A stretch of 64,000 nt of DNA from Terriglobia bacterium (lineage in GTDB: Bacteria; Acidobacteriota; Terriglobia; 20CM-2-55-15): positions 1,120,001-1,184,000 of the forward strand of contig CAXWPJ010000009.1 in the NCBI GenBank assembly GCA_963664115.2, read 5' to 3'. Of this stretch, positions 2,473-27,804 are shown piece after piece. A program made the position numbers and the translations under genes. Position 1 is the stretch's first letter; every line of letters starts with the position of its first letter. The notes beneath the pieces were generated by a model that was not told the origin of the DNA, ran no database searches, and saw nothing but the letters and a program-made list of their open reading frames with translations.

Positions 2473-2555
2473 ATAAATCATCTTGTCGGACATTAGAGAA
2501 CCCTCGTATTTAGGCCTTTTCTCACTGTCCGACAATGTCGGTTCTCAGGACTTGA
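2473..2555. repeat. Dyad site pair A1 (left arm truncated) + inverted B1
   Basis: ATAA-ATCATC-TTGTCGGACAT at 2473-2493; TCACTGTCCGACAA-TGTCGG-TTCTCAGGACTTGA at 2522-2555. Confidence 0.9.
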
Positions 2556-2634
2556 GAATTTGATAGCGCCCAACTGACTCCTCTAGTATCTTTTACCGAG
2601 TTTTTTACGGTTCTTTCGGCTACACACTTTAAAC

Positions 2635-2770
2635 ATAGAATCCGGCACGACGCTCGCCCACTAGGAGATCCTGTCGGTTCTCGGCAAAGGACGATGGGAG
2701 AAATGTGGCGTACGCAGATTAAGATGTTCGAGCGTGAGGTCGCGATCAAGACCCTACCTCGAGAGGTCGC
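2635..2770 (+). pseudogene. Ser/Thr protein kinase N-terminal stub
   Basis: IESGTTLAH*EILSVLGKG/MGEMWRTQIKMFEREVAIKTLPRE: Gly-loop and VAIK motif, with ATA start, an internal stop and a frameshift. Confidence 0.85.
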
Positions 2771-3086
2771 CCGGGTTGTTGCCAATCGGGGCTGGATTTC
2801 AGGAGACGACGACGCGACAATGCTTATTCATTGGAAGGAGTCGGCGACAACGAAGACAGCCCCGTTTTGCCGCAACCGTTTGGGCGCAGGGGGGGGGCGC
2901 AGGATTTGTCCCTCGTCGGTCGCGATGCAAAGACAGCGCCAGCGGCCTCGGTTTCAGGCCTCGGTGCCCGCTCCTCACTTCGCGCCTGCAACCCGAAGGC
3001 CCCTGCGCGCGGTCCTCGAGACTTCTGCTACGGGCTGCTAGGGTCCGAAATGCTCGAATGGTGAATTAGCCGGGAGGTAGCAGTTC

Positions 3087-4912
3087 ATGGGAAAGAAGCG
3101 AAAAGAGTCTATCGGCCGACGCAGTTTCCTGAAAGGTGCAGCGGGAGGCGGAGCGGCGCTTGTTGCGACTGCCCCCTAGCTGGCGCGCAGTCTGGGCCCG
3201 GCCCCACGTCGGCGGAGCCGCGTGAAGGGGACGCGACGGCAGGCGGCCGGCCGGGGTCCGACTTCATGATGGACGTCATAAAACCCCTCGGGTTTGAGTA
3301 CATGTCGATCAATCCCCATTCCAGCTCCCGTGGTCTACAGGAATCCATCATCAACTACAGTGGAAACCGCGATCCGGAACTGATCACCTGCCTCCACGAA
3401 GAGGCGGCCGTCGCCATGGCGCATGGATATTTCAAAATTGAAGGCAAACCGATGGCTGCGCTGATATACGGATCAGTCGGTTTGCAGCATGCCTCAATGG
3501 CGGTCTACAGCGCGTTTTGCGACCGCGTGCCGATTTACCTGATGATGGGCAACGAATTGGAGAATCCCAATTCAAGAAGCGTGCAGGATCCTGCGGCGAT
3601 GGTGCGCGACTTTACCAAATGGGACGATGCACCTGTCTCGCTCGATCAATTTGCCAATTCTGCGGTGCGCGCCTATGCCATCGCAATGACCCCGCCGACA
3701 ATGCCTGTTGTATTGTCGGTAGACGAGCGTTTGCAGGAAAATCGGATTCCCAGAGGCACCCGTTTGCGCGTCCCGAAGCTCACTCTGAATGCTCCGGCCC
3801 AGGGCGATGCCACCGCTGTGGCCGAGGTTGCGCGCCTGCTGGTCAACGCTGAGTTTCCGGTCTTGGCCGTCGAGCGCGCTGCGCGAACCGAAGCCGGTCT
3901 CAGCTATATCGTCGAATTGGCGGAACTCCTGCAGGCCGGGGTCGTGGACACGATCCAGCGCATGAATTTCCCCTCGCGCCATCCCCTCAGCCAGGACAGC
4001 GGTGTGTTTGGCAGTGCGGACGTCGTCCTGGCGCTTGAGCACCCGCGACTTTCGCGGTCGAGCCTGATGCAGGATGCAACGCTGCTCAGCATCAGCTCAC
4101 ATGACCTTTTCACGCGGAGCAACTACTGGGATTTCGGAAGCTACCAGGAAGCGGATGTGGCGATCGCAGCCGATGCGGAGGCCACGCTTCCACTCCTGAT
4201 CGAAGAGGTCAAGCGCCGGGTTACCGGCGATCGACAACGCGTGTTCGAAGCGCGTCGCGCGACGCTGGAGGATCGGTTCCAGCGTGCCCTCGAGCGAAAC
4301 CGGCGGCTCGCGGCCTCGGGCTGGAACGGCAGTCCGATCAGCACCGCCCGTGTCGCGGCCGAACTCTGGGCCCAGATCAAGAACAAGGACTGGTCCCTGG
4401 TTTCCCGAAGTGATGGAATGAACGAGTGGGCATGGAAGCTCTGGGATTTCCAGAAGTATCATCACCACATCGGTCAGTCCGGCTCGGTCGGCGTAGGCTA
4501 CAGCAACCCGGCTTCGGTGGGCGCCGCACTGGCAAACCGTAAGCACGGACGTCTGAGCATCAACCTGCAAAACGACGGCGACCTTATGTTTCTCCCCGGG
4601 ACCTTATGGACCGCTGCGCATCACAAGATTCCGATGTTGACCGTCATGCACAACAACCGGGCGTACAACCGGGAAGTGATGTGGGTCGCGCGCACGGCCG
4701 CCGAGCGGGAGCGCGACGTCACCCGATCCGACATCGGCAACTCCATTGACAATCCCAACATTGACTATGCCAAACTCGCCGAAAGCATGGGATGGTACGC
4801 CGAGGGTCCGATAGAAAATCCCGCGGACCTGGGACCGGCCATTCGCCGGGCCCTTGCGGTTGTCGAGCGGGGCGAGCCTGCGTTGCTGGACACGATCACG
4901 CAACCCATCTAG
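3087..4912 (+). CDS. ThDP-binding enzyme (acetolactate synthase/benzoylformate decarboxylase superfamily) with Tat-like leader separated by a frameshift; long ORF 3266-4912
   Basis: CLHEEAAVAMAHGY, GDLMF...HNNRAY; upstream MGKKRKESIGRRSFLKGAAG joins the main frame if the C run at 3172-3176 gains one C. Confidence 0.85.
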
Positions 4913-4921
4913 GAGGTTCCT

Positions 4922-5344
4922 GTGAGTCGTTTACTTATGGATCGCTGGTCGGTCAAACCGCCTTCCTGGGCCCTGGGCGTGGCGGTGCTGCTGCTTGTCG
5001 TCCCGGTGGGGTGGGTCGAGGCCGAGCAGTCGCCGGCCGCGGTTGACGCCGCGCCCGGAGGAAACGTCGAAGACGGAAAGCGGAGCCTGACGACCTATAC
5101 CTGCTCCTCCTGCCACGGTTATTCAGGCCACGGCGGGGTCGACGTAGGCGCTCCCCGCATCGCCACGACTTCAATGTCCCTTGCCGACTTTACGCAATAC
5201 GTGCGGCAGGCCAGCGGTTCTTCAATGCCTCGGTTTAGGGCCGAAATCTTACCCGACACGGTGCTGGCGGATATTTACGCTTTTCTGAAATCCATCCCAC
5301 CGCCACCCGATTCCAGGAGCATTCCTCTGCTGAATGATCTGTAA
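4922..5344 (+). CDS. Monoheme c-type cytochrome
   Basis: Signal peptide, CSSCH heme motif, distal MP. Confidence 0.88.
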   Translation: MSRLLMDRWSVKPPSWALGVAVLLLVVPVGWVEAEQSPAAVDAAPGGNVEDGKRSLTTYTCSSCHGYSGHGGVDVGAPRIATTSMSLADFTQYVRQASGSSMPRFRAEILPDTVLADIYAFLKSIPPPPDSRSIPLLNDL

Positions 5345-5366
5345 CGAGGGCCTCAACTTTCCCGGG

Positions 5367-5445
5367 TCAAGTCCTCGCAAATCATCTTCTCGGACATTGA
5401 AACCCCATTTTCAGGGCCTTTTCTCAGTGTCCGACAATGTCATTC
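5367..5445. repeat. Dyad site pair A2 + inverted B2 (B2 truncated by IS30 end)
   Basis: TCAAGTCCTCGCAA-ATCATC-TTCTCGGACATTGA at 5367-5400; TCAGTGTCCGACAA-TGTCAT at 5424-5443. Confidence 0.9.
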
Positions 5446-5920
5446 GGATCAACCGGTCGATGCAACACAAGCATTAAATGTTTCTGCCGGAGTTGCGAAC
5501 TCCAAGGTCTTGCGTGGCCGCTCGTTGAGCTGCCGTGCAACCGCGTCCAGATGCTCCTGTGAGTGTACTGAGAGATTCGTCCTTTTTGGGAAGTAGTATC
5601 GCAGCAGACCATTCGTGTTTTCATTCGATCCGCCTTGCCATGGACTCCGCGGGTCGCAAAAGTACACGGTAATGTCGGTGGCCAGAGTGAACCGTTTGTG
5701 CTCGGCCATCTCCGGACCGCGGTCCCGGGTCAGCGACCTGTAGAGTTCGGTTGGCAGCTTCTTCGCCTGTCGGATCAGTGCCGAAACGACTGTCTCTGTA
5801 ACGGACAGCTTCACCAACATGAGGTAAGACAAATGACGTTCGACCAGCGTTGCGATGTGGGTGTTCCTCGCCGATAGCAGATCCCCTTCCCAGTGTCCCG
5901 GTAGGGCCCGGCGATCGCGA
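5446..5920 (-). mobile_element. IS30-family remnant (C-terminal transposase part and right end)
   Basis: PGHWEGDLL, SLTRDRGPEMA, PWQGGSNENTNGLLR, LNERPRKTL...CVASTG*. Confidence 0.85.
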
Positions 5921-5942
5921 CCTACTTGGTCCCGAGATCGAA

Positions 5943-7469
5943 TCAGATGTATTGAGGCCGCGGCTGCTTGACCGGCGGGACCTGAAGCTCGGGCATCGGC
6001 TTTGCGGCAAAGATCCAACGGCACGGTTTCGCAATCAACTTCGCCCATCGGCGCCCGCGGCTGCGAGCGCTGTCGGTGGCGAGCCCCGTATTCGCGTACA
6101 TCTGGGGGAACAGTAAGGAGATCAGAATGTAGGCCAGTCGATCGCGCAGCTTGTTCGTGACCCGCGAGCGCTTCCACACGTTCGACAGGTTATAGAACTC
6201 TTTCCAAACCGCCTGCGTTTTCGTCCGGATCTCATACGGCGTCATCGTTGGATGCGGAATGTAGAGCTTGGGACGTTTGTTCGGTGGGATAAGCCAGAAC
6301 CGGTTCAGCGGGATCCCGTCCACCGTCTCTTTGGCCTGATCGATCTCGCTCTCCCACTTATTGAAATCGACTGTACCGGGAAACGGCGTCAGGGTAACGA
6401 ACTGAGCGAAATCGATCCCTGCCTTGGCAGCGAGATCGGCGGTCGCGTCGAACGTGTCGTCGCGATCCGTCGAAAGCCCAAAAATGAACGAGCCGAGGAT
6501 GTGGACGTCGTGGTCGACAAACTTGCGGAGCCGCTTGACGAGATCGTCTCCCGCGACGTTGAAATCCTTGAATACGGCCTTCAGACCTTCTTCCGTCACC
6601 GACTCGACGCCGACGAGAGCGCCTTTCACGTTCGCGCGTTTCATCGCATCGAGATACTCGTCATCGTCCGCGGCTTCCATCGTGATCTGCGTCAAAAAGA
6701 CCATGTCCTGCGGAAGCTCAGCGAGGCGATCCAAGAGCTCAAAACGCTCCGCACGGATAGCTTTTAACTCTTCCACGCGAGCGCCGGAACGACGCTCCTC
6801 GAGCTCGATGTCTTGCTGCGTGACCGGGTAAAAGTTGTCGTCGGCGAGAAGTATGAAACGAAATCCTTTCCGTCGCAGCTCGACGACCTCCTGGACAACG
6901 GCGTCCGAGGCGTGCTGTCGAGGCCTTTGGCCGTCGGTGCGCCAGACCGAGCAGAAGGAGCAATGTTTCGGGCAACCGCGCACGGTCTGCACCGAGGCGA
7001 TCATGTAGCTCTCTGACGGCATCAAATCCCACCGCGCAGGAAGGAAGGAGTCCCCTTCGATGCGGCCGCCGTCGTAGATCCGTTCCGGCTCGCCCTTTTC
7101 AATATCTTTGAGAACCTGACTCCAGATGTTGTCGCCGTCGCCCTTCACGACCGCGGTCGCGCCGCCATTCTCGAACGCTTCTTCCGGATAGAGCGTCACA
7201 TGCGAACCGCCGAAGACGACATGCGCACCACGCTCGCGCGCCTTTTGCCCGACCTCGTAGCCTCGCAGCGCGTTCAACGTGTGGATACCGATGCCCACGA
7301 CGTCGCCCGGCTGGATCTTGGAATAGTCCATCGGATCGAGCGTCTCATCTACGATAATCGGCGTTCCGAAACGAGCCGGTGTCGCGCACGCGATCACGTA
7401 GAGCCAGCGAGGAACGATGATACCGATACCGAAGGAGGTGTCGCTTGGGTTTATCAAATGTACGCTCAT
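5943..7469 (-). CDS. B12-binding-domain radical SAM protein
   Basis: RGCPKHCSFC (CxxxCxxC); N-terminal cobalamin-binding-like domain (VVFGGSHVT); likely start MSVHLINP. Confidence 0.88.
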   Translation of the reverse strand: MSVHLINPSDTSFGIGIIVPRWLYVIACATPARFGTPIIVDETLDPMDYSKIQPGDVVGIGIHTLNALRGYEVGQKARERGAHVVFGGSHVTLYPEEAFENGGATAVVKGDGDNIWSQVLKDIEKGEPERIYDGGRIEGDSFLPARWDLMPSESYMIASVQTVRGCPKHCSFCSVWRTDGQRPRQHASDAVVQEVVELRRKGFRFILLADDNFYPVTQQDIELEERRSGARVEELKAIRAERFELLDRLAELPQDMVFLTQITMEAADDDEYLDAMKRANVKGALVGVESVTEEGLKAVFKDFNVAGDDLVKRLRKFVDHDVHILGSFIFGLSTDRDDTFDATADLAAKAGIDFAQFVTLTPFPGTVDFNKWESEIDQAKETVDGIPLNRFWLIPPNKRPKLYIPHPTMTPYEIRTKTQAVWKEFYNLSNVWKRSRVTNKLRDRLAYILISLLFPQMYANTGLATDSARSRGRRWAKLIAKPCRWIFAAKPMPELQVPPVKQPRPQYI

Positions 7470-7779
7470 GCCGTCTCCATAATGTAGCTTGAAAACCGGA
7501 CTGGGATCCAGCCAAGCAAAGCGGAGAATATAGGAGCACCGCTCCACTGTCAACGTCATGTGAGAGGGCAGGATCGGGCTCGATGAAAGACGAATAACAG
7601 ATCTAAGCCCCTCTCGCGCTGGACGAAGTTGATCCCATTCCACCCACGTCTCTTCCCAATGTCCCGATAGCACTTCGGGCACCCAACCTACAATCCAGTA
7701 GACTCATCATAATGTCCCTCTCCATCCATGTCGATGCTTACTCAGGCTATCGGGCTGTAGATGACCGTGAAAAATATTC

Positions 7780-7813
7780 TCAAGTCCTGACAAATCATCT
7801 TCGCGGACATTGA
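7780..7813 (+). repeat. Dyad site A3
   Basis: TCAAGTCCTGACAA-ATCATC-TTCGCGGACATTGA. Confidence 0.9.
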
Positions 7814-7917: not shown

Positions 7918-7966
7918 ATGGAATCCGGCACCAAACTGGGTCACTACGAAGTCCTCAGCCTCCTTA
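7918..7966 (+). pseudogene. Ser/Thr kinase N-terminal stub
   Basis: MESGTKLGHYEVLSLL then loss of homology; preceded by the same leader as at 2578 and 24118. Confidence 0.8.
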
Positions 7967-8103
7967 GGTTTGACCCTGCGGTTAGGAGTTGCGAACTGGC
8001 CTCCGGAGATAATCGTGCGCTGGAAAGGCTCAGCCGGAGGCAGATGGATCTATACTCACGAGCCGGAAGGGAGAAAACTAAATCCGGCTGAAAGGAAAGC
8101 ACC

Positions 8104-9063
8104 ATGACATTGCGCATGCCCATGCTGAGTACGGTCCTGCTGGCGCTGCTGCTGGGAATCGCCGTCAGCGGCGAGTGGTCTGCGATGAAGGCGCAGAGCG
8201 CCTTCTCGCTCACACCGGTCGGCCCCGACCTCTACTTCTACTACACGGGTGGAGCTTCCAACTCCACCGTGCTGATCACCGAGGAAGGGGTACTGATCGT
8301 CGACTCCCAGGGAAATCGGCGCGCCGCCGAAGCGCTGCTGGCGGAGATCCGCAAGAAAACGGCCGACCCTATCAAATGGGTCGTCAACGGGCAAGACCAC
8401 GGCGACCACTATCTCGGCAACGCTGTTTTTAAGCGCGAAGGCGCGGCCATCGTGGCGGAGGCCGAGACGGCTCGCATCATCGCGAGGAATTACGAGTACG
8501 AACTCGAGTGGCGCGGTCTGGATCCGCTCGAGGCCGGAGAACATGTGATCCCCGAGGTCACGTTCGAGGAACGAATGGTCATCCGCTTGGGCGGGCGCGA
8601 GGTCATCCTCCTTCACATCGGTGCGGGGCAGAATCCCGGCGATACGGTCGTGTTGTTTCCCCACGCGCGCGCCGCCTACTCCTCGGGTGCGTTCGCGCCG
8701 AAGTCGTGGTCCAGCACCGCCTACGCCTCGTCCGTGGAGAGCTGGATTGACGTGCTGGAGAAGATCAAAGCGCTAGACGTGGACACCTACCTGCCGGGTC
8801 ACGCCCACAGGGTCACCGACCGGGCCGAGATCGACGAGGAGATTGTGTTGCTGCGCGAGATCCAGGCCGCCGTGGAAGACGCCATTGCGCAGGGTCTGAC
8901 CGCAGAAGAGACCGCCCAGGCGCTGACTTTCGAGCGGTACGCAAACTGGAGGGGTGCCGCGCGGCGCGAACGGAACCTCCGGAACCTCCATTACCTGCTC
9001 TCGACCGGCCGGCCGATCTACTTCGACTACCTGGACGGCCGCACGACCATCAAGCCGTATTAG
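8104..9063 (+). CDS. Exported metallo-beta-lactamase-fold hydrolase
   Basis: Signal peptide; VLIVDS, variant motif QDHGDH, PGHAH. Confidence 0.8.
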   Translation: MTLRMPMLSTVLLALLLGIAVSGEWSAMKAQSAFSLTPVGPDLYFYYTGGASNSTVLITEEGVLIVDSQGNRRAAEALLAEIRKKTADPIKWVVNGQDHGDHYLGNAVFKREGAAIVAEAETARIIARNYEYELEWRGLDPLEAGEHVIPEVTFEERMVIRLGGREVILLHIGAGQNPGDTVVLFPHARAAYSSGAFAPKSWSSTAYASSVESWIDVLEKIKALDVDTYLPGHAHRVTDRAEIDEEIVLLREIQAAVEDAIAQGLTAEETAQALTFERYANWRGAARRERNLRNLHYLLSTGRPIYFDYLDGRTTIKPY

Positions 9064-9145
9064 AGTTTGATCTTGCGTGCGGATAAGCGGTGTAAGCAGG
9101 GGCTGACGACTATGGCAGCGCTGACAGTGTCGTAGTACGATCGGC

Positions 9146-9230
9146 CAGAACTGGTTTGAAGAACTGAAGCTACGGGTGCCGGTTCCTTGATTCTCGGGGT
9201 CAAGTCCTGATAAATCTTCTCGGACGTTGA
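9146..9230 (+). repeat. Kinase C-terminal stub (QNWFEELKLRVPVP*) followed by dyad site A4 (spacer shortened to ATC)
   Basis: Stop at 9188-9190; TCAAGTCCTGATAA-ATC-TTCTCGGACGTTGA at 9200-9230. Confidence 0.88.
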
Positions 9231-9241
9231 GAAACCTTTCT

Positions 9242-9688
9242 TCAACCGGTCGGTTTCGGAGTTGCACGTTGACGAGCTTCGCAAAAAGCCTTCAGGCCTG
9301 CGTTCTCTTCTTCAAGGGAGCGTCTCACGGGGGACCTGAGGAGCGGTCCGAGCAGGGTCGCAACAAGACCCAACATTTCGATCCGAAGCACGCTCTGCAC
9401 GCTGCTGCCGGAGGGGTTCACTGCGTGCGTCGCCACTATATGAATACCCCATAGGCGGCCTTCCCACGTAAACATCTTGCCTGGATTGAAGGCAGTGACC
9501 CGCCACCGGATTCGAGGAAGTCCGCGCTGCTTGATCGAGGCTGTACTCCCGTGTCCAAAGGGGCCCTTGTCGAGCTGACTGATCGACTCCACGAAAGGGG
9601 ACCATTCGCCTCATCTTTCAATATCTTCAGTGGCGGTCCAGACGACTTCTGGGGAGGCATCGATGTAAATGACGTTTTCAAGCCTCAT
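9242..9688 (-). pseudogene. SRPBCC/polyketide cyclase family protein with nonsense codon
   Basis: MRLENVIYIDASPEVVWTATEDIER*GEWSP: TGA at 9613-9611 where W is expected. Confidence 0.75.
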
Positions 9689-9836: not shown

Positions 9837-9998
9837 CTCCACTTTATCGCTGTGCTAACCTGGTTTGAAGAACTCAAGGAGCGGGTGCCGGTTCCCTGAT
9901 TTTCCGGGTCAAGTCCTGAGAAATCATCTTGTCGGACGTTGAGAATCGGCAAATTACTGAGGTTTTTCAACGTCCGTATGTCGTTTCTCAGAACTTGA
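9837..9998. repeat. Kinase C-terminal stub (LHFIAVLTWFEELKERVPVP*) + dyad pair A5/B5
   Basis: Stop at 9897-9899; A5 at 9909-9942 TCAAGTCCTGAGAA-ATCATC-TTGTCGGACGTTGA; B5 at 9967-9998 TCAACGTCCGTA-TGTCGT-TTCTCAGAACTTGA. Confidence 0.92.
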
Positions 9999-10143
9999 GA
10001 CTTTTCTTGCGCAAAAATTCAGACTTGAGCGAGGCATTCGGGCAGCCTCACTAGCAAAATATTTAAGCAATCAAGAAGACTTTACCGCGGGTGAAATGGC
10101 CCGTGCTCTGTTGGACTTCATACTCAAGGAGACGTAGACGCCA

Positions 10144-10665
10144 ATGTCGAGATTCACAGAACGCATGATTCGCGCTGCGAAGTTAGATGTGAACCTTTAT
10201 GAAGAGGTGGAAGCCGATAAGACGACCATGGGCCAGGCGATGGGCGTGGTGGTGTTGTCTTCTCTTGCCGCCGGCATCGGCAGTATATCCACGGGTGGCA
10301 GAAATTTAATTCTCGTGACCATTGCCGCTTTAGTGGGATGGTATATCTGGGCTTATCTCACTTATTTTATCGGCACCAAATTTCTGCCCGAAACGCAAAC
10401 AAAGGCCGATTACGGAGAACTGTTAAGAACGATCGGATTTTCTAGCTCGCCGGGGCTGATACGGATTTTGGGAATCATTCCAGGGTTCACCAATTTAGTC
10501 TTCTCGGTGGCCGGAATATGGATGCTCATTGCGATGGTCATTGCGGTGCGTCAGGCATTGGACTATACAAGCACCCTGCGAGCGGTGGGTGTGTGCTTGA
10601 TCGGCTGGATCATTCAGAGCATCTTTGTAGGGCTCTTATTGTTGTTTGCGCAGGGTGGCGCTTGA
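10144..10665 (+). CDS. YIP1-like integral membrane protein
   Basis: Several TM segments; LYEEVEAD, LLRTIGF, AVRQALDY. Confidence 0.7.
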   Translation: MSRFTERMIRAAKLDVNLYEEVEADKTTMGQAMGVVVLSSLAAGIGSISTGGRNLILVTIAALVGWYIWAYLTYFIGTKFLPETQTKADYGELLRTIGFSSSPGLIRILGIIPGFTNLVFSVAGIWMLIAMVIAVRQALDYTSTLRAVGVCLIGWIIQSIFVGLLLLFAQGGA

Positions 10666-10809
10666 AAAACCCGCTGATACCTCCGTCTACGCTTCGAGCG
10701 CAACCTCACGATGCCGCCCGCAAGACTCGACGAGGCCAGAATGGATTCGCTACATCCTTTTCTGTACGGCACTTTCATCCCCTACAACATGCCGGTTTAT
10801 CCCGGCGCT

Positions 10810-10840
10810 TTCCCTGATAAATTATCTTCTCGGCGGTTGA
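10810..10840 (+). repeat. Degenerate dyad site A6
   Basis: TTCCCTGATAA-ATTATC-TTCTCGGCGGTTGA. Confidence 0.75.
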
Positions 10841-11144: not shown

Positions 11145-11179
11145 TCAAGTCCCGAGAAATCAATCTTCTCGGACGTTGA
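11145..11179 (+). repeat. Dyad site A7 (7-bp spacer)
   Basis: TCAAGTCCCGAGAA-ATCAATC-TTCTCGGACGTTGA. Confidence 0.88.
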
Positions 11180-11505: not shown

Positions 11506-11567
11506 GACGCAATTACGCTGCAGTCGTGATAAAGCCGACGCAATTACGCTGCAGTCGTGATAAAGCC
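11506..11567. repeat. Perfect 31-bp tandem duplication
   Basis: GACGCAATTACGCTGCAGTCGTGATAAAGCC x2. Confidence 0.95.
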
Positions 11568-11633
11568 GGACCGCTTCACCCTCCGGCGATCCAAGAGGTT
11601 TGTAGTGAAACAATGCTTTCTCGGGAGGAAAAG

Positions 11634-12011
11634 ATGAATCTGAAGTCTCTGAGCCTTGCCGTCGCGACATTTGTCGCTCTAGGCGCGTCGGCGTGGGCGC
11701 ATCATTCACATGCGAATTACAACACCGACGAGTTCACAAACCTGTCCGGCACCGTTACCCAGGTGGCCTGGGGGAACCCGCATGTCTGGCTGTATATGGA
11801 GATCGCCGACGAGCAGGGCCGTCCGCAGGCGTGGACAATGGAGGGCGGCAGCCTCCAGGCGTTGATGCGCGGCGGCTGGCAACGCGACAGCCTGAAGCCA
11901 GGCGACAGGATCAGCGTGCGCTGCAATCGAGTGAGAGATGGGTCCTCAGGGTGCCTGATGGGTTTCGTGACGAACATCAACGGTACGGCCATGGACAAGG
12001 AGTTCGACTGA
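11634..12011 (+). CDS. DUF6152-like secreted OB-fold protein
   Basis: Signal peptide ending AWA-HHS; WGNPHVW; LKPGDRISV. Confidence 0.75.
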   Translation: MNLKSLSLAVATFVALGASAWAHHSHANYNTDEFTNLSGTVTQVAWGNPHVWLYMEIADEQGRPQAWTMEGGSLQALMRGGWQRDSLKPGDRISVRCNRVRDGSSGCLMGFVTNINGTAMDKEFD

Positions 12012-12055
12012 GCCTGTCGCTTAGGCATTACACGACAAAATCGGAGGAGGATCAG

Positions 12056-13075
12056 ATGCGTTATCTCGGACTTGTTTCGGCGGCCTTGGTCGTGCTGAGC
12101 ACAAGCGCCTCCTTTGCGCAGGGCTGGCGTGAATATGTCAGCCGTGATGAGTTCTTCATGGTCAGTATGCCGGCGGAGCCGCAAATTACGGAGACCACGT
12201 ACCGTGCGGCGTCAGGCGCGATCCTGCCGGCGAAGACGTTCGTCGCGACCGAAGGCCAGAGTGGTGCTTCCGTCACCGTCGTCCACTACATGAACGCGAG
12301 CGCGGCAGACGTTGAGGGCGCCGTTGAACATGCGGTGGGGGGCTTCCGCAGCCGTTCCGGGGAGATTACCTATGATAGCCCGCAAAGGATGGAGGGCCTT
12401 CCGGGACATATGATCTACCACTTGAATCCGGACCAGAGCCGCACCGCTGCAGGAATATTTTTGCACGCGGGGCCGTCCGAACATGGCGGCCCGGGGCGCC
12501 TATATATCCTCGAGGGCATTGCGGCGGCGGGCGCGCCGTCGCCCATACAGTTCCCGCAATCGTTCTTTTTGCTCGACGACGCAGGCACCCGCCTGGACTA
12601 TGAAACCGATGCGAACGGGCAGAGAGTCCGGGCTTTTCGCGGCCAACCGGTTAGCGTCGGCCCGGCCTACAGCGCGCGAGAGCCGGTGTCCTGTGAGTCG
12701 CGCGCCGAGCCCACCCAAGGCCGGCCGACCCCCGCGCAGGTGGTGGGTCACCTCAAGTGCGCGGCCGAAGGCGTCGCCGACGGCAGTCTGTATCTCCTTG
12801 AAGACGTCGAAGTGAGCGAGATCGGCGAAGGCGAGTCTGTTGACGCGAGTTACTTCCCTGACATCGACGTCGCCCACCCGGTGTTTCCGATTCGGGGGAA
12901 TCTGGTGCGCTACGAGTGCCGACGCGAGAATGGCTCCAATGACGGAGCCAACTGCGTTTCCCATGTTGAGGCGAACGCATCCGGCCGTTGCTACAAGGCC
13001 ACCTCAGGCGACTGGAACTGCAGCATGTCGGACCTTGTGCAACGGACGACAGCGGGCGTAGCGGCGCCGGAGTAG
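12056..13075 (+). CDS. Secreted hypothetical protein with Cys-rich C-terminal extension
   Basis: GGAGG RBS, signal peptide, QGWREYVS..F.V.MPAEP; paralog of 20131-20715. Confidence 0.7.
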   Translation: MRYLGLVSAALVVLSTSASFAQGWREYVSRDEFFMVSMPAEPQITETTYRAASGAILPAKTFVATEGQSGASVTVVHYMNASAADVEGAVEHAVGGFRSRSGEITYDSPQRMEGLPGHMIYHLNPDQSRTAAGIFLHAGPSEHGGPGRLYILEGIAAAGAPSPIQFPQSFFLLDDAGTRLDYETDANGQRVRAFRGQPVSVGPAYSAREPVSCESRAEPTQGRPTPAQVVGHLKCAAEGVADGSLYLLEDVEVSEIGEGESVDASYFPDIDVAHPVFPIRGNLVRYECRRENGSNDGANCVSHVEANASGRCYKATSGDWNCSMSDLVQRTTAGVAAPE

Positions 13076-13114
13076 GAAGGACGAATTTGCACACGTGGCA
13101 CCGCGGAGACGGCG

Positions 13115-13146
13115 GTGCTTTCATAAATCATCTTGTCGGAAGATGA
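13115..13146 (+). repeat. Degenerate dyad site A8
   Basis: ...CATAA-ATCATC-TTGTCGGAAGATGA. Confidence 0.75.
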
Positions 13147-20715: not shown

Positions 20716-20760
20716 ACACGCGGGTGGCGGTATTCTTTATTCGATCTTTAGGAGAGTGAG

Positions 20761-21138
20761 ATGAGGTCAAAAACCTTCTGTTTTGCCGCCACGATCGCGG
20801 CTGCCCTGGTCATGTCCGGGCCTGCCTGGGGCCACCATTCGCACTCCAACTATGACCAGACCAAGTTCCTCAACATGGACGGAACCGTGACGGATGTCTC
20901 CTGGATCAATCCACACGTCTGGGTTTACATGGAAGTAATCGATGCCCAAGGTCAGCCGAAAATGTGGGTTCTTGAAGGCGGCGGTATCCGTCCGCTGATC
21001 CAGAAGGGCTGGACACGCGACAGCCTCAAAGCGGGTGACGAAATTTCCGTGCGATGTCATCAACTGAGAGATGGCTCCGAAGGCTGTCTTCTGGGGTTTG
21101 TGAAAACTGCGGACGGAGTTGAAAAGGAGTTCGACTAG
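20761..21138 (+). CDS. DUF6152-like secreted protein
   Basis: AWG-HHSH, WINPHVW, KEFD* (same ending as the 11634 paralog). Confidence 0.78.
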   Translation: MRSKTFCFAATIAAALVMSGPAWGHHSHSNYDQTKFLNMDGTVTDVSWINPHVWVYMEVIDAQGQPKMWVLEGGGIRPLIQKGWTRDSLKAGDEISVRCHQLRDGSEGCLLGFVKTADGVEKEFD

Positions 21139-21365
21139 GCGATCCCAATTTTGGGGTTCGAACACTCTTGGTACCGGACAAGCGTTGCTTGTCCTCGAAA
21201 CGGCAATCTTGCCCGGGGCGTGATCCGGCTTGGGCGGGCATCCTTCCTTCCCACCGCGTGCGCGCGGGTCCTCCATTGATCGTTAGAACGCGCTCCAAAT
21301 AGCCGTAAAATAACCTTCCATGATGAGCACATCGCTATCATCAACGCGGGCGCCGGCCCTGCCAT

Positions 21366-21378
21366 TCAAGTCCTGAGA
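21366..21378 (+). repeat. Left half of the dyad site
   Basis: TCAAGTCCTGAGA, 13-bp match immediately upstream of the EutA-like gene. Confidence 0.55.
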
Positions 21379-21386
21379 CAGAGAGA

Positions 21387-22988
21387 GTGCACTTCGATCA
21401 TCACCATCCCGACCTGGACCACGTTCCCGAAGACCAGCACCTCGGCCCTGAATACGACGGCCCGATCGAGGATCACCCTTTGTGGCAGCGGGAAAACGTA
21501 TCCCTCACAAGCGTCGGTGTTGATATCGGTTCAGCGGGCACGCAGATTCTGTTCTCACGCATGCACCTGCGCCGCCAGGCGGTCGATCTCTCGAGCCGTT
21601 ACCTGGTGGTTTCGCGTGAGACCTGGTACGAGTCTCCGGTTCGACTGACGCCCTACAGGAGTGAAACGCTAATCGACGCTCGAGCCCTTGGGGCCATCGT
21701 CGATGCCGCGTATCAGGCAGCACGAGTGCATCCCGACGATATCGACACAGGCGTTGTCATTCTGACCGGGGAAGCCCTCAGGCGCGAGAACTCGGAGCGC
21801 ATTGCCGGCATTCTCTCAGAAAAGTGTGGGGAACTGGTCTGTGCGACCGCCGGCCATCATATGGAAGCGATGCTCGCTGCGCATGGCTCAGGCGCGGTTC
21901 AGGCTTCGTATGATCGCAACGAGTGTGTGCTCAACATCGACATCGGAGGCGGCACAACGAAGCTCAGCGTGATCGATAAAGGCCGGGTCGTGGCCACTGC
22001 CGCGATCCACATCGGCGGACGCTTACTGGTGCGCGGGGGCGACGGGCGGCTCGCCCGCCTGGACCCTGCCGGGAAAACTCACGCCGCACGTGCGGGATTT
22101 TCCTGGCGCGTTGGCGATGGGGTGAGCGACGGACAGCTCGACGCGGTCGCGGAATTCATGGCTGATGCTCTCGTCGCGGCACTGACTGCGCCGACGCTGC
22201 CCCCCGATGTAGGGGACCTTTACCTGACCGACCCGATTACAGGTTTGGAGAATGTTGCCACCGTCGTCTTCTCAGGTGGTGTCGCCGAGTTCATATATCA
22301 GCGCGAGGACCGCGATTTCGACGACCTCGGGAAACGTCTGGGCGAGGCGCTCCGCGCCCGCGTCGATTCCGGTGAGCTGCCCTGGTATTTCTTACCCGAC
22401 AGTCACGGCATCCGCTCGACCGCCCTCGGTGCCTCGGAGTTCACGGCTCAATTGAGCGGCAATACGGGTTATATCAGTGATCCGGGTAGCCTTCTGCCTC
22501 GACGCAACATACAGGTCGTGCGGCCCGATTTCGATTTTGCGGGGGAATTCGATTCAGGCAGTCTTGCCGAAGCGATTCGCCTGCACATGAAGCGATTCGA
22601 CGTCGACGACTCCGAGGCCGACGTTGTCCTGGCCTTCCATTGGCAGGGCGTCCCCGAGTTCCGTCGTATCGCAGCGCTTGCGGCGGGCATTTGCGGTGGC
22701 ATGGCCGAGCGCATCGCCGGAGGGAAGCCCATCTATGTAGTTCTCGATGCCGATATAGCGATGAATCTCGGTGCCATCCTCCGGGAGGACCTTGCGATCG
22801 ACAATGAGGTCTGCGTCATCGATGGTATCGCGCTCTGGGATTTCGACTATATCGACCTGGGCAGGATGCGACTGCCCTCGGGTACCGTACCCGTTGCGAT
22901 AAAATCGCTGGTGTTCCATGACGTCGTCGGGGGACCGCACCCCCACCAGAGGGTTCACCACAAACCACAACACACATCGGAGAGCTGA
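21387..22988 (+). CDS. EutA-like ASKHA ATPase (ethanolamine ammonia-lyase reactivase homolog) with His-rich termini
   Basis: SVGVDIGSAGTQ, TGEA, NIDIGGGTT, SGGVAE, DYIDLG..VPVAIKSL. Confidence 0.85.
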   Translation: MHFDHHHPDLDHVPEDQHLGPEYDGPIEDHPLWQRENVSLTSVGVDIGSAGTQILFSRMHLRRQAVDLSSRYLVVSRETWYESPVRLTPYRSETLIDARALGAIVDAAYQAARVHPDDIDTGVVILTGEALRRENSERIAGILSEKCGELVCATAGHHMEAMLAAHGSGAVQASYDRNECVLNIDIGGGTTKLSVIDKGRVVATAAIHIGGRLLVRGGDGRLARLDPAGKTHAARAGFSWRVGDGVSDGQLDAVAEFMADALVAALTAPTLPPDVGDLYLTDPITGLENVATVVFSGGVAEFIYQREDRDFDDLGKRLGEALRARVDSGELPWYFLPDSHGIRSTALGASEFTAQLSGNTGYISDPGSLLPRRNIQVVRPDFDFAGEFDSGSLAEAIRLHMKRFDVDDSEADVVLAFHWQGVPEFRRIAALAAGICGGMAERIAGGKPIYVVLDADIAMNLGAILREDLAIDNEVCVIDGIALWDFDYIDLGRMRLPSGTVPVAIKSLVFHDVVGGPHPHQRVHHKPQHTSES

Positions 22989-22989
22989 G

Positions 22990-23934
22990 ATGTTTGCACC
23001 GGTGCTCAAGACTGTAACCCGCACGCAGGGAAATAACGCCGCCCTGAAAGATGGCACGGTCACGCCGAAGGGCTGCGTTCTGGATTTCGAGGAAGTGCCC
23101 GTGCTGGTTCATGCATTTCGCCGCATGGTGCGTGGACTGGAATTTGACGTCTGTGAAATGGCCCTGACCACCTATCTTTGTGCTCGCGAGCACGGCGTTC
23201 GTTTTACCGCATTGCCGATCTTTCTGGTTCGAGCGTTTCACCACGGCGCGATCCTTCACAACTTGAGTTTCCCTGTAGGCGATCCCCGGGAGCTGGAGGG
23301 AAGGCGAGTCGGAATAAACCGGGGGTATACGGTGACCACCGGCGTCTGGGCTCGGGCGGTCCTCGAGGAAGAGTACGGCGTCGATCTAAGCAAGGTGAGC
23401 TGGGTTGTGTCAGGTGACGAACATGTCACAGCCTATGTGCCGCCCGGGAACGTAGTCCCTATGGAACCCGGCCAGACGCTTGAGGCAATGCTCGCCACGG
23501 GGGAACTGGCCGCAGCGATCGGCCTGAAGACCGATCTTGCCCAGATTCAGCCACTGATCCCGAACGCACTGGACGCGGGCATCGCCGCGTTTGAACGCGC
23601 GGGGCACTATCCGATCAACCACCTTGTGGTTGTTCGGGATGATGTGCTTGAGTCGTATCCGGAGGTCGCCGTGGCGTTGTTAAACGCTTTTGCCGAGGCA
23701 AAGAGCGTCTATCTGGAGCGGCTCAAGCAAGGAAGAATCGAAAACCCCACAGAGATGGACGCATTTCACGCCCGGATGATGGAAATCGCAGGTGACCCGC
23801 TGCCCTACGGAATCGCAGCGAACCGTGGTGTGCTGGAGAGCCTGATCAGCCACGCATCGGCGCAGAAGATTCTGAAGAAGCCGGTGGAGCTTGAAGAGCT
23901 ATTTGCAGAAGAGACACGTGGATTGAGTGCGTGA
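22990..23934 (+). CDS. 4,5-dihydroxyphthalate decarboxylase-like / type 2 periplasmic-binding-fold protein
   Basis: FRRMVRGLEFDVCEM, YTVTTGVWAR, YPINHLVV, DPLPYG. Confidence 0.8.
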   Translation: MFAPVLKTVTRTQGNNAALKDGTVTPKGCVLDFEEVPVLVHAFRRMVRGLEFDVCEMALTTYLCAREHGVRFTALPIFLVRAFHHGAILHNLSFPVGDPRELEGRRVGINRGYTVTTGVWARAVLEEEYGVDLSKVSWVVSGDEHVTAYVPPGNVVPMEPGQTLEAMLATGELAAAIGLKTDLAQIQPLIPNALDAGIAAFERAGHYPINHLVVVRDDVLESYPEVAVALLNAFAEAKSVYLERLKQGRIENPTEMDAFHARMMEIAGDPLPYGIAANRGVLESLISHASAQKILKKPVELEELFAEETRGLSA

Positions 23935-24064
23935 TTTCAGCATCCTCCCCATCTTGAACGTTTTTCGAACTCTGCAAATCGGTTTTCACCTCTCGCTATA
24001 TTGCGAGACTGCAGTTTTTACGCCTAAGTTACTGATTTTAATTTCTATTCTAGGAACTGAATTC

Positions 24065-24095
24065 TCAACGTCCGACAATGTTTCTCAGGACTTGA
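24065..24095 (-). repeat. Inverted dyad site B9 (spacer shortened to TGT)
   Basis: TCAACGTCCGACAA-TGT-TTCTCAGGACTTGA. Confidence 0.9.
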
Positions 24096-24174
24096 GAATT
24101 TAATAGCGCCTAACCCACTCCTCTAGTATCTTTTACGGAGTTTTTCACGGTTCAATCAGCAACACACTTTAGAC

Positions 24175-24295
24175 ATGGAATCCGGCACCCAACTCGGGCA
24201 CTACGAAATCCTCTCAGCCATCGGCAAAGGCGGCATAGAGTGAGGTGTGGGTCTTGATGGCAATTTTCCGGCTGGGCTTGGTGTCCCGCGCACGG
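24175..24295 (+). pseudogene. Ser/Thr kinase N-terminal stub with internal micro-inversion
   Basis: MESGTQLGHYEILSAIGKGGI/EVW on +, then RARDTKPSRKIAIKT on the - strand at 24294-24250. Confidence 0.85.
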
Positions 24296-24404
24296 TGTGC
24301 ATCAGAGGAGGGCGAATAATACGCGGAGCCGGCCCGGATAGGCTTACTTCCGAACTGGCGTACGGCTAGCGATCCCGACACCATTCATAGGGCACAGAGA
24401 CGGT

Positions 24405-24848
24405 TTACTCGACGTCTTCGAAAAAACCGCTCGCAGTGAGCTTCACCACGATGTCCCTGTCGCTGCGGTTGTTGAGGTACCAGCCATGTATTCCGTCAAA
24501 CGGCGCCTTCAGCGTGCCGCTTTCGCGGCCTTCGTTGTGCACCTTGTAGAACATCAGGTCGCCCTGGCCGTCAACGGGTTCGGTATGACCGTGGAATTCC
24601 ACGTCCAGCAGAGCCGGGTCCGTCACGTCGGACGTCCAGGAATACATCATGAAATCGCCGGCCTTCATGCTCAGTTTGAACTCCAGGCCTACGCCCGTCG
24701 GGATCAGGATTTCATAATCGCTCTGCTTGTAGGGAGTGGTGGCATCAGAAAAGGTGCCGGGGCTTAGGGGCATGTCGTTCCATTGAACCTGGGCCACGCC
24801 TGTAACTGAAAAGATGCAAATTACGAGGGGAACAATCAGTTTTCTCAT
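24405..24848 (-). CDS. Secreted hypothetical protein
   Basis: MRKLIVPLVICIFSV signal; EFHGH and APFDGIHGWY motifs. Confidence 0.65.
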   Translation of the reverse strand: MRKLIVPLVICIFSVTGVAQVQWNDMPLSPGTFSDATTPYKQSDYEILIPTGVGLEFKLSMKAGDFMMYSWTSDVTDPALLDVEFHGHTEPVDGQGDLMFYKVHNEGRESGTLKAPFDGIHGWYLNNRSDRDIVVKLTASGFFEDVE

Positions 24849-25117
24849 ACCGGACTCCTTACATGTTGCCTGTTGACGAGTGCGCCATATTACCAACGAT
24901 GCGTCGTAGCCGGGAAGGAATTTCGTCACGGCAGCGTCGTCAGACCCTGCTCATTCCGCTTATCCGCGCGCGCGTCCGCATTACCCCAGAATCCAGACAT
25001 TGGCGCCGCACTGCAATATCTCTAGCTTGTTCCAATTACGGATGAGATACGCTCAAACGTTTGCCGGCCTTGTGATACATTCGGTGTCAGCCCTTCTCGA
25101 ATTGAGGAATAACGAAA

Positions 25118-25880
25118 ATGTCGATTGAGAGACTTCGGCGATTTTGCCGTCTTAGAACGCTCATGGCGTATTCGATCCTATGGTTGTTGCCGGTCGCCTT
25201 AGCGGCGCAGGATGCTAGCGATCCCTCCACTCTTTCTCCGGGATTTCATCGTCTGACTTTGCCGCGTGCGGATGGGCCCGTAATCAACTACGCGATCCTC
25301 GTTCCGGATAGCTATTCTCCCTCGACGCCCGTCCCTCTCATTCTTGCATTGCACTTCGGAGGAAACCCGACAGGCGCGGGTGCGAGCGTACTGCAAATTC
25401 TGATTGGTCCGGCGCTTAGCGAACTCGGCGCCATTATCGTCGCGCCGGATTCGGTGGGAGGCAATTGGACCACCCCCGACCACCCCCGAAAACGAGGTCG
25501 CTGTGAACGCGTTGCTCGACACGGTCTTGGACCATTATGCAATCGACGAGGAAAAGATTGCAGTTACCGGCTTCAGCATGGGCGGCGCAGGCTCCTGGCA
25601 TTTTGCGCAGAGTTTCCCGGAACGCTTCAGCGCGGCAATTCCTATCGCCGGCAGACCGCCGGCATCAGCCGCCGGGTGGCAGCTTCCGGTATTGGCTATT
25701 CATTCCCACGACGACCAAGTTGCACCTTTTGAGCCAACTGAGGCACGAATCGCGGAACTTCAGAACGCCGGTGCGGACGCGACGCTGATCGCGCTTTCCG
25801 GCATCACGCATTACGAAACCCACCGCTTCCAAGATGCATTGCAGCAGGCGGTCCCGTGGTTACGTGAGATTTGGGAGTAA
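25118..25880 (+). pseudogene. Secreted alpha/beta hydrolase (esterase-like), frameshifted
   Basis: GFSMGG nucleophile motif; a 10-bp duplication GACCACCCCC x2 at 25468-25487 splits the ORF. Confidence 0.8.
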
Positions 25881-25978
25881 AGCCTTTAGCAGGATGGCGG
25901 ATAGGCGTTTTAAGCAGGGCCCGACGACTGTGGCAGCAATGAAAACGTCAGAGTAGGGGCGTTATGTAAACCTGGCTG

Positions 25979-26057
25979 TTTGAAGAACTGAAGGAACGGG
26001 TGCCCGTGCCCTGATTTCCGAGTTCAAGTCCTGATAAATCATCTTCTCGGACGTTGA
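25979..26057 (+). repeat. Kinase C-terminal stub (FEELKERVPVP*) + dyad site A10
   Basis: Stop at 26012-26014; TCAAGTCCTGATAA-ATCATC-TTCTCGGACGTTGA at 26024-26057. Confidence 0.92.
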
Positions 26058-26126
26058 CATGTGGATGTGCCGGGTTCTAATGCGATCCAAGAGAAGTAAA
26101 CTTCGCGTTAAATTGTAATCTAGGGA

Positions 26127-26474
26127 ATGGCCTTCAGTGAATTTGAATCGAAGAAGTATGAGATGGTGGCGCGTCGGTTTGTCGAACGTCTCCGGCCACA
26201 GGCCCAACATCGCAATAAGATCGATCTCAGCAGTAGGGTGAGCGGACAGAGCGTTGAAATATTCGAGATCCATCCTTCGCCGAATGAGCCCGGAAGTAAA
26301 ATCGAGGCGGGCGTCGCAAAGGCTACCTATGTCAAGGCCAATGGCGTGTGGAAGATATATTGGCAGAGAGCCGATCTCCGGTGGCACCGCTATGAACCTG
26401 TCCCGGAAGTTGACAGCCTAGAGGAAGTTCTACAAATTGTTGGTACTGATGAGTACGCGTGTTTCTTCGGTTAG
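26127..26474 (+). CDS. DUF3024-like protein
   Basis: WKIYWQRADLRWHRY...DEYACFFG. Confidence 0.8.
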   Translation: MAFSEFESKKYEMVARRFVERLRPQAQHRNKIDLSSRVSGQSVEIFEIHPSPNEPGSKIEAGVAKATYVKANGVWKIYWQRADLRWHRYEPVPEVDSLEEVLQIVGTDEYACFFG

Positions 26475-26551
26475 GAGAACCTGTCAAGCGTGTTTAACGT
26501 CGAAGAGTTTCACTAAGACAGACGTCGTCGTGCTCCCACCCAAAATGATTC

Positions 26552-26585
26552 TCAGGTCCTGAGAAATCATCTTGTCGGAAGTAGA
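26552..26585 (+). repeat. Dyad site A11
   Basis: TCAGGTCCTGAGAA-ATCATC-TTGTCGGAAGTAGA. Confidence 0.85.
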
Positions 26586-26618
26586 GAATTTCAGCAAGCG
26601 GAAGCTAGAATTGCGCAA

Positions 26619-27380
26619 ATGAATATTTTTTCTCTTACTCAACGGTCATGGGTGCTCTTTCTAGCGTTCTTGTTTGCTCTTGCAGCGTCCTGCGGTCCAG
26701 CCCCGGTGGACGCGGTTTCACCGCCGGTGTCACCACGCCAGACCATAGATTTTAGGCAGGCACGCAACCGGATGGTCGAACAGCAGATCGAAGCTCGGGG
26801 AATTCGTGACCCTCGGGTTCTTGAAGCCGTGGCACGGGTTCCCCGACACGAGTTCGTTCCCGCCGATTATAGAGCCTTGGCCTACAACGACGTGCCCCTA
26901 CCCATTGGATTGGATCAGACTATCTCGCAGCCCTACATTGTTGCCCTGATGACTGAACTCGTTCAGACGGAACCGGACGACCGTCTTCTCGAGGTCGGAA
27001 CGGGATCGGGATACCAGGCCGCCGTCGCCGCCGAGCTGGTGGCCGAAGTCTACAGCATCGAGATCATTCCGGAGCTGGCCCGCTCCGCGGCCGAGCGACT
27101 CGAGCGGCTCGGGATTTTGAACGTCTCGGTACGTGAAGGTGATGGGTATCTGGGATGGCCCGAGTTCAGTCCCTTCGATGGAATCCTCGTCACGGCCGGA
27201 GCCGAGGAAATTCCTCAGCCTCTGATTGCCCAGCTCAAGCCGGGAGCTCGGATGGTCATTCCCGTCGGTGAACCGGCCTCCATCCAGATCCTGAAGGTGA
27301 TTGAAAAGTTGCCCGGAGGTGCGGTCGATATTCGTGACGTCACTCCGGTCCGATTCGTCCCACTGCGCCGCAGTCAGTAG
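26619..27380 (+). CDS. pcm: Protein-L-isoaspartate O-methyltransferase with lipoprotein-like leader
   Basis: VPRHEFV, QTISQPY, LEVGTGSGY, VRFVPL. Confidence 0.92.
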   Translation: MNIFSLTQRSWVLFLAFLFALAASCGPAPVDAVSPPVSPRQTIDFRQARNRMVEQQIEARGIRDPRVLEAVARVPRHEFVPADYRALAYNDVPLPIGLDQTISQPYIVALMTELVQTEPDDRLLEVGTGSGYQAAVAAELVAEVYSIEIIPELARSAAERLERLGILNVSVREGDGYLGWPEFSPFDGILVTAGAEEIPQPLIAQLKPGARMVIPVGEPASIQILKVIEKLPGGAVDIRDVTPVRFVPLRRSQ

Positions 27381-27804
27381 TCTGCTCGGTTCCAGATTCG
27401 GGAAGTGCCACGGACGTTGAGATTTCACATTTTCGGACAGAAACAAACTAACCCGTCGATTCATCCCATTAAACCAACAACTTAGAGTGGAGAAAGCAAA
27501 ACTCGACGGGAAGGTTTCGAACTAAGATTTCGCTCGGTCGTGCATACGGCTGACCATCTCTGTTGCGTCAAGCGCGCTGGGTCGATCGACCGGCGACCCT
27601 CTCCATCATCCTTGAGGGAGAGGCTCATTGGGGAATAAGAAAAAAGGTTGATGTAGTTCCTATGAAGATCCGCACCGGTCGCCCGGTGCGGATGGACGGC
27701 CTTCATAGTAAAGGGGCGGTTGCCGAGGCGTCTGAGAAATAAGACAATCGGATGCTACTGAGACAAACCTGCAAACCCCCGCGCTTCAAATAGCGGATAC
27801 ATCG

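Follow-up and report, generated by a model that had tools for sequence, protein, structure and literature searches.

In Acinetobacter, modules of one to a few genes lie between two-armed sites with a 6-bp spacer, the pdif (xrs) sites, also in chromosomal islands (PMC13141974, PMC12907356, 10.1101/2024.04.09.588662), and the mobility of these modules has been described with the host recombinases XerC and XerD at work. The sites flanking a module are inversely oriented, carry distinct spacers and alternate (PMC13141974, 10.1101/2024.04.09.588662); pdif sites keep one of their arms conserved and tolerate mismatch beside the XerC arm (PMC13141974). Here we describe 34-bp dyad sites that partition part of a 64,000-nucleotide stretch of DNA from Terriglobia bacterium (Acidobacteriota; GenBank assembly GCA_963664115.2, contig CAXWPJ010000009.1, positions 1,120,001 to 1,184,000; the window) into gene cassettes, an array that proved to be one of about 20 in the genome, which an earlier note made from the letters of the window had overlooked. 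The sites bound modules that have moved between loci and species, and we consider it probable on balance that they are crossover sites of an Xer-like tyrosine recombinase, here called Rec, acting in trans, alone or possibly paired with XerC.

The system works like the dif modules of Acinetobacter, with one conserved and one variable arm, spacer classes of opposed orientation, fused module pairs between direct sites, a majority of modules without an enzyme, and insertion sequences (ISs) that home to the sites, so that the comparison with pdif made in the earlier note was apt. Unlike pdif, however, it has no XerD-like arm close to that of the host dif, its conserved footprint spans 34 rather than 28 bp, and direct repeats of the same class dominate; there are about 160 chromosomal copies, a candidate dedicated recombinase and module ends derived from kinase genes. 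The systems XerH/difH and XerS/difSL (PMC5241119, PMC2965235) also have sites of about 30 bp or more, in which two nearly identical arms flank a 6-bp centre with a shift of one base between them, and at difH one enzyme binds both arms (PMC5241119). Those are single sites of chromosome dimer resolution, whereas the sites described here are multicopy cassette ends in a genome where dif and XerCD are intact and separate.

Integrons and attC clusters without an integrase (PMC2727003) likewise form arrays of tandem sites around small, horizontally exchanged genes, often with the enzyme absent from the array. The present system is nevertheless not an integron: its sites are double-stranded and conserved in sequence, without attC boxes, hairpin covariation or any link to intI, and its genes lie in both orientations, many with their own promoter. 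A further group comprises elements that exploit Xer recombination, CTX among them. The TLC phage (PMC9226527), another such element, resembles our sites in combining a good XerC-type with a poor XerD-type arm and in possible one-sided exchange; it integrates at dif, whereas here dif is not used and no phage was found (0 viral matches). We found no account of such a system in Acidobacteriota in the literature that lies outside subscription journals and supplements.

Sites, spacer classes and islands

A 34-bp profile, seeded on five copies in the window, iterated once and applied with a cut-off of 25 bits, gave 161 matches in the genome studied (G000; 4.89 Mb, 12 contigs; other G numbers are related genomes compared), about 10 of them being second counts that stem from contig stretches present in duplicate in the assembly, against 0 in the control, one base shuffle per strand. 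The motif is real and far above chance in this genome. Its consensus, TCAAGTCCTGA(G/T/C)AA ATCATC TT(C/G)TCGGAC(G/A/C)TTGA, is made up of a left arm, a 6-bp spacer and a right arm; the arms are inverted around a spacer that is asymmetric, near-invariant within G000 (at least 95% per position) and homogeneous among partners, which is the layout of a tyrosine-recombinase core site. The left arm is the conserved one, GTCC is conserved in both arms with an offset of one base between left and right, reminiscent of difH, and the outer symmetry is weaker. Nearly all copies (159 of 161) lie outside our own codon-model gene calls, in keeping with the intergenic placement reported earlier for the window. 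Long near-identical duplications at or near contig ends (C2:1-14093 versus C2:153240-167331; C11 versus C6; C5:1-11221 versus the end of C9) probably reflect overlaps in the assembly. There are also IS families of more than 50 copies in this genome.

Two classes of site differ in their spacer, which starts with RTC in class A (ATCATC here) and with ACG in class B, and what had been taken in the window for four inverted copies of a single site are class B sites with spacers ACGACA or ACGACC. In G000, neighbours of the same class lie on the same strand in 122 of 133 cases, while neighbouring A and B sites are opposed in 40 of 43 (class A in these counts takes in hybrids and half-sites); direct same-class repeats account for 121 of 176 neighbour pairs. 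The same polarity is seen in three genomes of another family (G514, G670 and G618), with classes GTCNNN and ACGGGA: like pairs are aligned in 16 of 17 cases and mixed pairs opposed in 22 of 23, again around kinase genes. A third spacer, GCCGAC, is present in G000, and its half-site occurs in 140 of 401 Terriglobia genomes (256 matches versus about 83 control matches).

Searched with a pattern that leaves the spacer free, all five genomes of the genus contain sites (181, 138, 80, 23 and 14 matches, some on both strands), as do, in low numbers, 9 of 30 other genomes of the family, with 1 control match in all 35; a genus of another family has 60, 27 and 27 matches with the same left arm. The arms are kept across lineages while the spacers are lineage-specific (ATCATC in G000, ATCCGG in G004, ATCCTC in G048, a mix in G001), and the conserved part of the spacer is the three bases adjoining the left arm, comparable to the one-sided tolerance of mismatch in pdif (PMC13141974).

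The sites of G000 form 42 clusters, 21 of which hold at least three sites; they cover 477 kb, or about 10% of the genome, and these 21 islands are spread over eight contigs. Gaps of less than 5 kb separate neighbouring A sites in 73 of 136 cases, against a mean of 23.5 (maximum 34) in 200 random intergenic draws. A repetitive extragenic palindromic (REP) element or an operator scattered uniformly through the genome would not give this picture: the copies are genome-wide but clustered, and their flanks are shuffled. Nor do they gather at one locus near the terminus. The canonical dif is a single copy on contig C2 near 108 kb, at a GC-skew switch, each of five relatives has one or two dif-like matches, and dif was predicted in three of three Acidobacteria by Kono et al. 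(PMC3025954). The array had also been explained by serial integration at dif, for which the Xer-like 11-6-11 core geometry speaks. Since the true dif is single and lies elsewhere, this explanation fails; with 21 islands on eight contigs and an empty window locus in two congeners that holds no dyad (below), it is already refuted for this locus, and we give it practically no chance. Second dif-like sites at G017:C1:1119429 and G002:C1:478199 are possibly ends of Xer-exploiting elements. Single-copy matches in G007 and G017 were discarded as candidates for dif, which lies elsewhere, as they adjoin kinase stumps and mobile elements.

Cassettes between the sites

Four single cassettes each occur at two loci of G000 (99.8, 96.9, 90.6 and 83.5% identity), where homology begins and stops at the sites and the neighbours are unrelated. 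Cassettes of the window recur at unlinked places in congeners with 92-98% identity (89-92% for the DUF6152 pair), compared with 78-87% for the syntenic backbone (15978-23938 and from 27585). The unit with a thiamine diphosphate (ThDP) enzyme and cytochrome c (2475-5400) runs from site to site in G002 at 94% identity, with A sites at both ends, and the DUF3024 unit (26033-26590) is bounded by sites in G002 as in the window. The same site-bounded module is found, then, in different contexts, and the earlier proposal that the sites delimit mobile gene modules is borne out. G002 and G004 lack the block at about 23940-27510, and its flanks join there within 66 and 100 bp with no dyad present; arrays would therefore start with the arrival of a block that already carries sites, and not by growth at a site present beforehand.

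Serine/threonine kinase genes are closely associated with the sites. Each of the five full-length genes has an A site directly behind its end, and in three an A or B site precedes the start; a kinase 3' end, in most cases a stump of 30-70 nt, precedes 81 A sites, many A sites are followed by the kinase promoter and a 5' stump, and stumps lie at 81-85 sites in all. The stump junctions vary in position, which rules out capture at a fixed junction. The pattern suggests a kinase module as the founder, with repeated replacement of the DNA in its interior.

An alternative that dispenses with a dedicated recombinase would make the dyad a protein-binding site of an amplified kinase unit, with cassettes swapping by short-homology recombination over the 40-bp site and the stumps. 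The numerous stumps add homology, arm alleles are unlinked from their flanks, as variable crossover points would give, and Rec is missing from most site-rich genomes (both below). Yet the spacer is near-invariant within a genome and different between lineages, and the two classes keep opposite strands in two families, neither of which an operator needs; moreover, cassettes without shared stumps still break at the site, and most kinase genes of sister genera have no sites. We regard this alternative as distinctly unlikely.

Four unrelated IS types home to the sites, much as IS1202-family elements target pdif (10.1101/2022.12.17.520857, PMC10132070). Two are IS110 elements, with 7 of 7 and 7 of 8 ends inserted at the spacer; the ends of IS30-type elements abut a spacer, cut at its centre, in 24 of 28 cases; and IS91-type elements, which carry a tyrosine recombinase, replace the left arm. 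The IS91-type end lies two bases before the spacer at 8 of 8 dyads in G000 (two clear, six degenerate) and at 4 of 4 in G002 and G004, a landing place that may hint at the function of the element's recombinase. That this enzyme is itself the catalyst of module movement would fit the constant end and the presence of relatives in eight of nine site-rich genomes. It was not found, however, in G003 (80 pattern matches), while it is abundant in G017 (44 matches, for 2 pattern matches) and present in G021 (0 pattern matches), and insertion destroys the left arm, as fits a parasite of the sites; a catalytic role for it is very unlikely.

The features of the window are collected in Table 1. Five of the ten direct copies claimed in the earlier note are full (5367, 7780, 9909, 26024 and 26552), whereas that at 2473 is an IS110 hybrid, those at 9200 and 11145 have spacer indels and those at 10810 and 13115 have decayed left arms. 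One of the two half-sites, at 27411, is a real right half; the other, at 21366, is a chance match at the end of a backbone gene, where it takes in the final codons and the stop; in G001 and G004 this gene aligns but the motif is missing. The housekeeping half was rightly described as free of sites (no copy between 27.5 and 64 kb), and the cargo names agree by Pfam (ThDP enzyme, cytochrome c, radical SAM, metallo-beta-lactamase fold, SRPBCC-type, Yip1, DUF6152, esterase, DUF3024 and PCMT), the 'Zn finger' being a short frame with CxxC and HxxC motifs. As the window holds no recombinase, one would act in trans, as had been supposed.

Table 1. Sites, remnants and cargo genes of the window (positions count from its first letter)
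Position	Strand	Feature	Remarks
1515..2465	-	N-terminal part of IS110 transposase fused in frame to C-terminal part of an unrelated gene	Element end abuts spacer of 2463 site
2463..2496	+	A-class hybrid site, left arm replaced by IS110 end; left end of ThDP/cytochrome c cassette	G002 homology begins at spacer; start given earlier as 2473
2522..2555	-	B-class site, spacer CCGACA	Followed by sigma70-like promoter and kinase 5' remnant
2635..2774	+	Serine/threonine kinase gene, 5' remnant	tblastn
3266..5344	+	Cargo: ThDP enzyme and cytochrome c	Pfam
5367..5400	+	A-class site, full copy	
5424..5443	-	B-class half-site, cut at spacer by IS30-type end	IS30 transposase remnant at 5449-6177
5943..7682	-	Cargo: B12-binding radical SAM gene	Pfam; 96% to G004 copy at unlinked place
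7780..7813	+	A-class site, full copy	Followed by decayed promoter and kinase 5' remnant (7918-7967)
8104..9063	+	Cargo: metallo-beta-lactamase-fold protein	Pfam; 98% to G002 and 95% to G004 copies elsewhere; followed by kinase 3' remnant (~9146-9188)
9200..9230	+	A-class site lacking one ATC of spacer (3 nt short)	
9242..9592	-	Cargo: SRPBCC-type protein	Pfam; kinase 3' remnant ~9855-9897
9909..9942	+	A-class site, full, consensus-like	
9965..9998	-	Degenerate B-class site	Start given earlier as 9967
10144..10665	+	Cargo: Yip1-domain protein	Pfam; copies elsewhere in G002, G003, G004, G048
10807..10840	+	Degenerate A-class site, left arm decayed	Start given earlier as 10810
11145..11179	+	A-class site, 1-nt spacer insertion	Kinase 5' remnant at 11274-11366
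11526..13075	+	Cargo: DUF6152 gene and partner	Pfam; 89-92% to G001, G002, G004 copies in other contexts
13113..13146	+	A-class site, degenerate left arm; right end of large array	Start given earlier as 13115
23940..27510		Second small array, ends approximate	Absent at syntenic locus of G002 and G004
24065..24095	-	B-class site lacking 3 nt	Followed by promoter and kinase 5' remnant (from 24175)
24405..25880		Cargo: unknown protein and esterase	97% to G002 elsewhere; kinase 3' remnant ~25975-26012
26024..26057	+	A-class site, full copy	
26127..26474	+	Cargo: DUF3024 cassette	Pfam; site-to-site copy in G002 (93%); in G003 with other neighbours
26552..26585	+	A-class site, full copy	
26619..27380	+	Cargo: PCMT (pcm) cassette	Pfam; 92-93% to G002 and G003 copies elsewhere
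27411..27420	+	Right half-site closing pcm cassette	

A 31-nt tandem duplication at 11506-11567, just upstream of the DUF6152 gene, is absent from the assembled contigs of eight sequencing runs (of 23 public ones) and may be an assembly error or a strain variant; two runs carry 143 other letters instead of the 135-nt stretch at 15798-15934. Some cassette ends (window 9079-9137 and 25897-25955, and the upstream flanks of C11:7897, C2:771584 and C9:1230923) resemble attC remains of integrons or another palindromic repeat, which suggests that integron cassettes were recaptured.

The candidate recombinase and its rivals

Rec is encoded at C5:52189-53154 of G000, between two inward-facing B sites; it has the full catalytic set of a tyrosine recombinase and scores far below the cut-offs for XerC and XerD. 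With 5 candidates per genome scored, 46 of 401 Terriglobia genomes have it, as do a few plasmids, and both copies in G514 lie among sites. Soil homologues from unrelated samples (L126, L112, L113, L181 and L013) have dyads at fixed positions before and after the gene, that of L126 being nearly identical to the A arms, while other homologues have an ACC spacer upstream and a GTC spacer downstream. Beside Rec genes the arm profile is enriched 3.5-fold (15 in 70,196 positions versus 44 in 715,706). At least one GCCGAC half-site occurs in 21 of the 46 genomes with Rec and in 119 of the other 355 (p = 0.14), and at least three in 7 of 46 and 15 of 355 (p = 0.007), a weak association that was counted by eye among genomes whose kin are not independent. 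The structure of Rec predicted from the single sequence was poor (mean predicted local distance difference test score, pLDDT, 47.6), and a viral collection held no match to the A pattern and one distant relative of Rec. Upstream of one Rec homologue (L394/L013; G030:C3:313858-313885) the dyad is near-palindromic and its right arm equals the dif XerD arm of that genome at 9 of 11 positions, a possible link between dif and these sites.

Several observations weigh against crossover by Rec at the spacer. The enrichment beside Rec sets mostly intergenic against mostly coding DNA at related loci, and a strong arm match (more than 12 bits) occurs at only 1 of about 90 Rec loci. Among the nine site-rich genomes, Rec is intact in two (G000 and G514) and broken in one (G001); it was not found in the other six (G002, G003, G004, G048, G670 and G618), searched as metagenome-assembled genomes 92-98% complete, so that Rec would have to visit. 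Some cargo shared with congeners lacks sites at its ends, such as the radical SAM gene and the DUF6152 pair in G004. No excised circle appears in the assembled contigs of the eight runs, where the joints at sites are mostly uninformative, with sides of at most 31 nt. A crossover confined to the spacer would make each arm travel with its flank, which is not seen. Among 214 A sites of four genomes (all G000 sites passing the filter and the fetched parts of G001-G003, with few pairs), linkage to the flanks is not significant for any variable arm position: where the upstream flank is shared, position 12 is the same in 5 of 12 pairs (expected 0.37, p = 0.47), and where the downstream flank is shared, position 23 is the same in 9 of 13 (expected 0.51, p = 0.15). 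Moreover, among the 11 most recent pairs there are 5 with different arms on the side that they share, an arm which a clean spacer crossover would carry along, and mapping of the crossover gave no fixed point. This unlinking could come from migration of the junction across the 40 bp of homology, from gene conversion or from plain homologous exchange. Lastly, among tyrosine recombinases (27 matches in G000), only XerC and XerD are common to G000, G002, G003 and G004, and no conserved non-Xer tyrosine recombinase was found in all site-bearing congeners. One contig (run X17) joins 9942 to 11417 with a side of 43, at most a hint of a circle or an empty allele. Serine resolvases occur in each of five genomes, but their numbers differ widely (3 to 60 matches).

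The presence of XerC and XerD in all four genomes compared favours an alternative in which these host enzymes run the same module system, the sites being diverged chromosomal pdif and Rec just another cassette. The two-class opposed layout is that of pdif (PMC13141974, 10.1101/2024.04.09.588662), and the right arm agrees with the host XerC arm at a mean of 7.2 of 11 positions (122 sites) and with those of four Terriglobia dif sites at 7.2-8.2; the two most frequent variants of the right arm start in the same way as dif XerC arms in this genus. Agreement with the host XerD arm, on the other hand, is only 5.2 of 11 for the conserved left arm and 5.4 for the right (122 sites); against the four Terriglobia dif sites these values are 4.0-6.1, with the left arm at 5.2-6.1. 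The XerD arms of pdif stay close to the chromosomal one (PMC13141974, Table 1), and an inner ATAA/TTAT is said to be essential (10.1101/2024.04.09.588662), whereas the inner arm ends in G000 mostly read GAGAA/TTCTC and position 23 is never A in 115 sites. In addition, about 160 active XerCD sites in direct repeat would presumably be a deletion hazard. We therefore judge this alternative unlikely, and of the label 'Xer-type' attached to the array before, the tyrosine-recombinase-like geometry and an XerC-like right arm stand, while neither arm is XerD-like.

An integron origin fares worse. attC sites are structure-conserved hairpins of about 55-140 bp with R'' and R' boxes, and their cassette genes are almost all co-oriented; ISs target both attC and REP. 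Read as attC-like hairpins, in clusters without an integrase, or as REP-like repeats, our sites would have in their favour this IS targeting, the tandem co-oriented arrangement around one or two genes, and the integron integrase at C9:714590-715873 of G000. However, that gene has no dyad site within 2.5 kb, and a relative was found in G002 but none in G003 or G004. The sites, at 34 bp, are shorter than attC, the G of the R' box (position 30) is not conserved (52%), and the symmetric positions 12 and 23 show no covariation (p = 0.08), so hairpin pairing is not maintained; genes in G000 face both ways relative to the sites (111 same, 63 opposite). This explanation is hardly credible.

A proposed mechanism and its significance

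The enzyme, the circles and the route of capture that we infer can be put together as follows. Rec would act in trans, either by itself or perhaps together with host XerC bound to the right arm, and the spacer would serve as the key, like recombining with like. Because A and B sites face opposite ways, a module with an A site at each end would leave as a circle and integrate anew at a further A site, whereas one between a B and an A site would be swapped by two crossovers, as in the dif modules of Acinetobacter. The founding cargo would have been a serine/threonine kinase gene with its promoter; new cassettes probably arose from foreign DNA that replaced the kinase interior at variable junctions and left the observed stumps, and new arrays were probably seeded when a site-bearing block inserted where no site had been. 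The first junction was probably often resolved away from the spacer, which would scramble the arm alleles.

In its widest form, which we hold with rather more doubt than confidence, the proposal is of a class-wide acidobacterial gene-capture system independent of integrons and XerD, in which a mobile Xer-like recombinase, perhaps with XerC in a mixed tetramer, would shuffle modules between two non-interchangeable site classes; about one-tenth of the chromosome would thereby have been arranged into exchangeable cross-species cassettes, new cassettes would be built from kinase-gene shells, and the system would also have become a landing pad for at least four unrelated IS types.

In Acinetobacter, the mobility of dif modules has been described with host XerC and XerD at work; here the same logic is seen at about 160 chromosomal sites with arms unfit for XerD, in two acidobacterial families. 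One can thus test whether modules can be shuffled by XerC alone or with a partner other than XerD, and the system offers, as a tool, a recombinase whose orthogonal sites are natural ones. The system would be a third route to cassette gene exchange, beside integrons and pdif, and would account for the accessory genes that move between these uncultured species at 92-98% identity.

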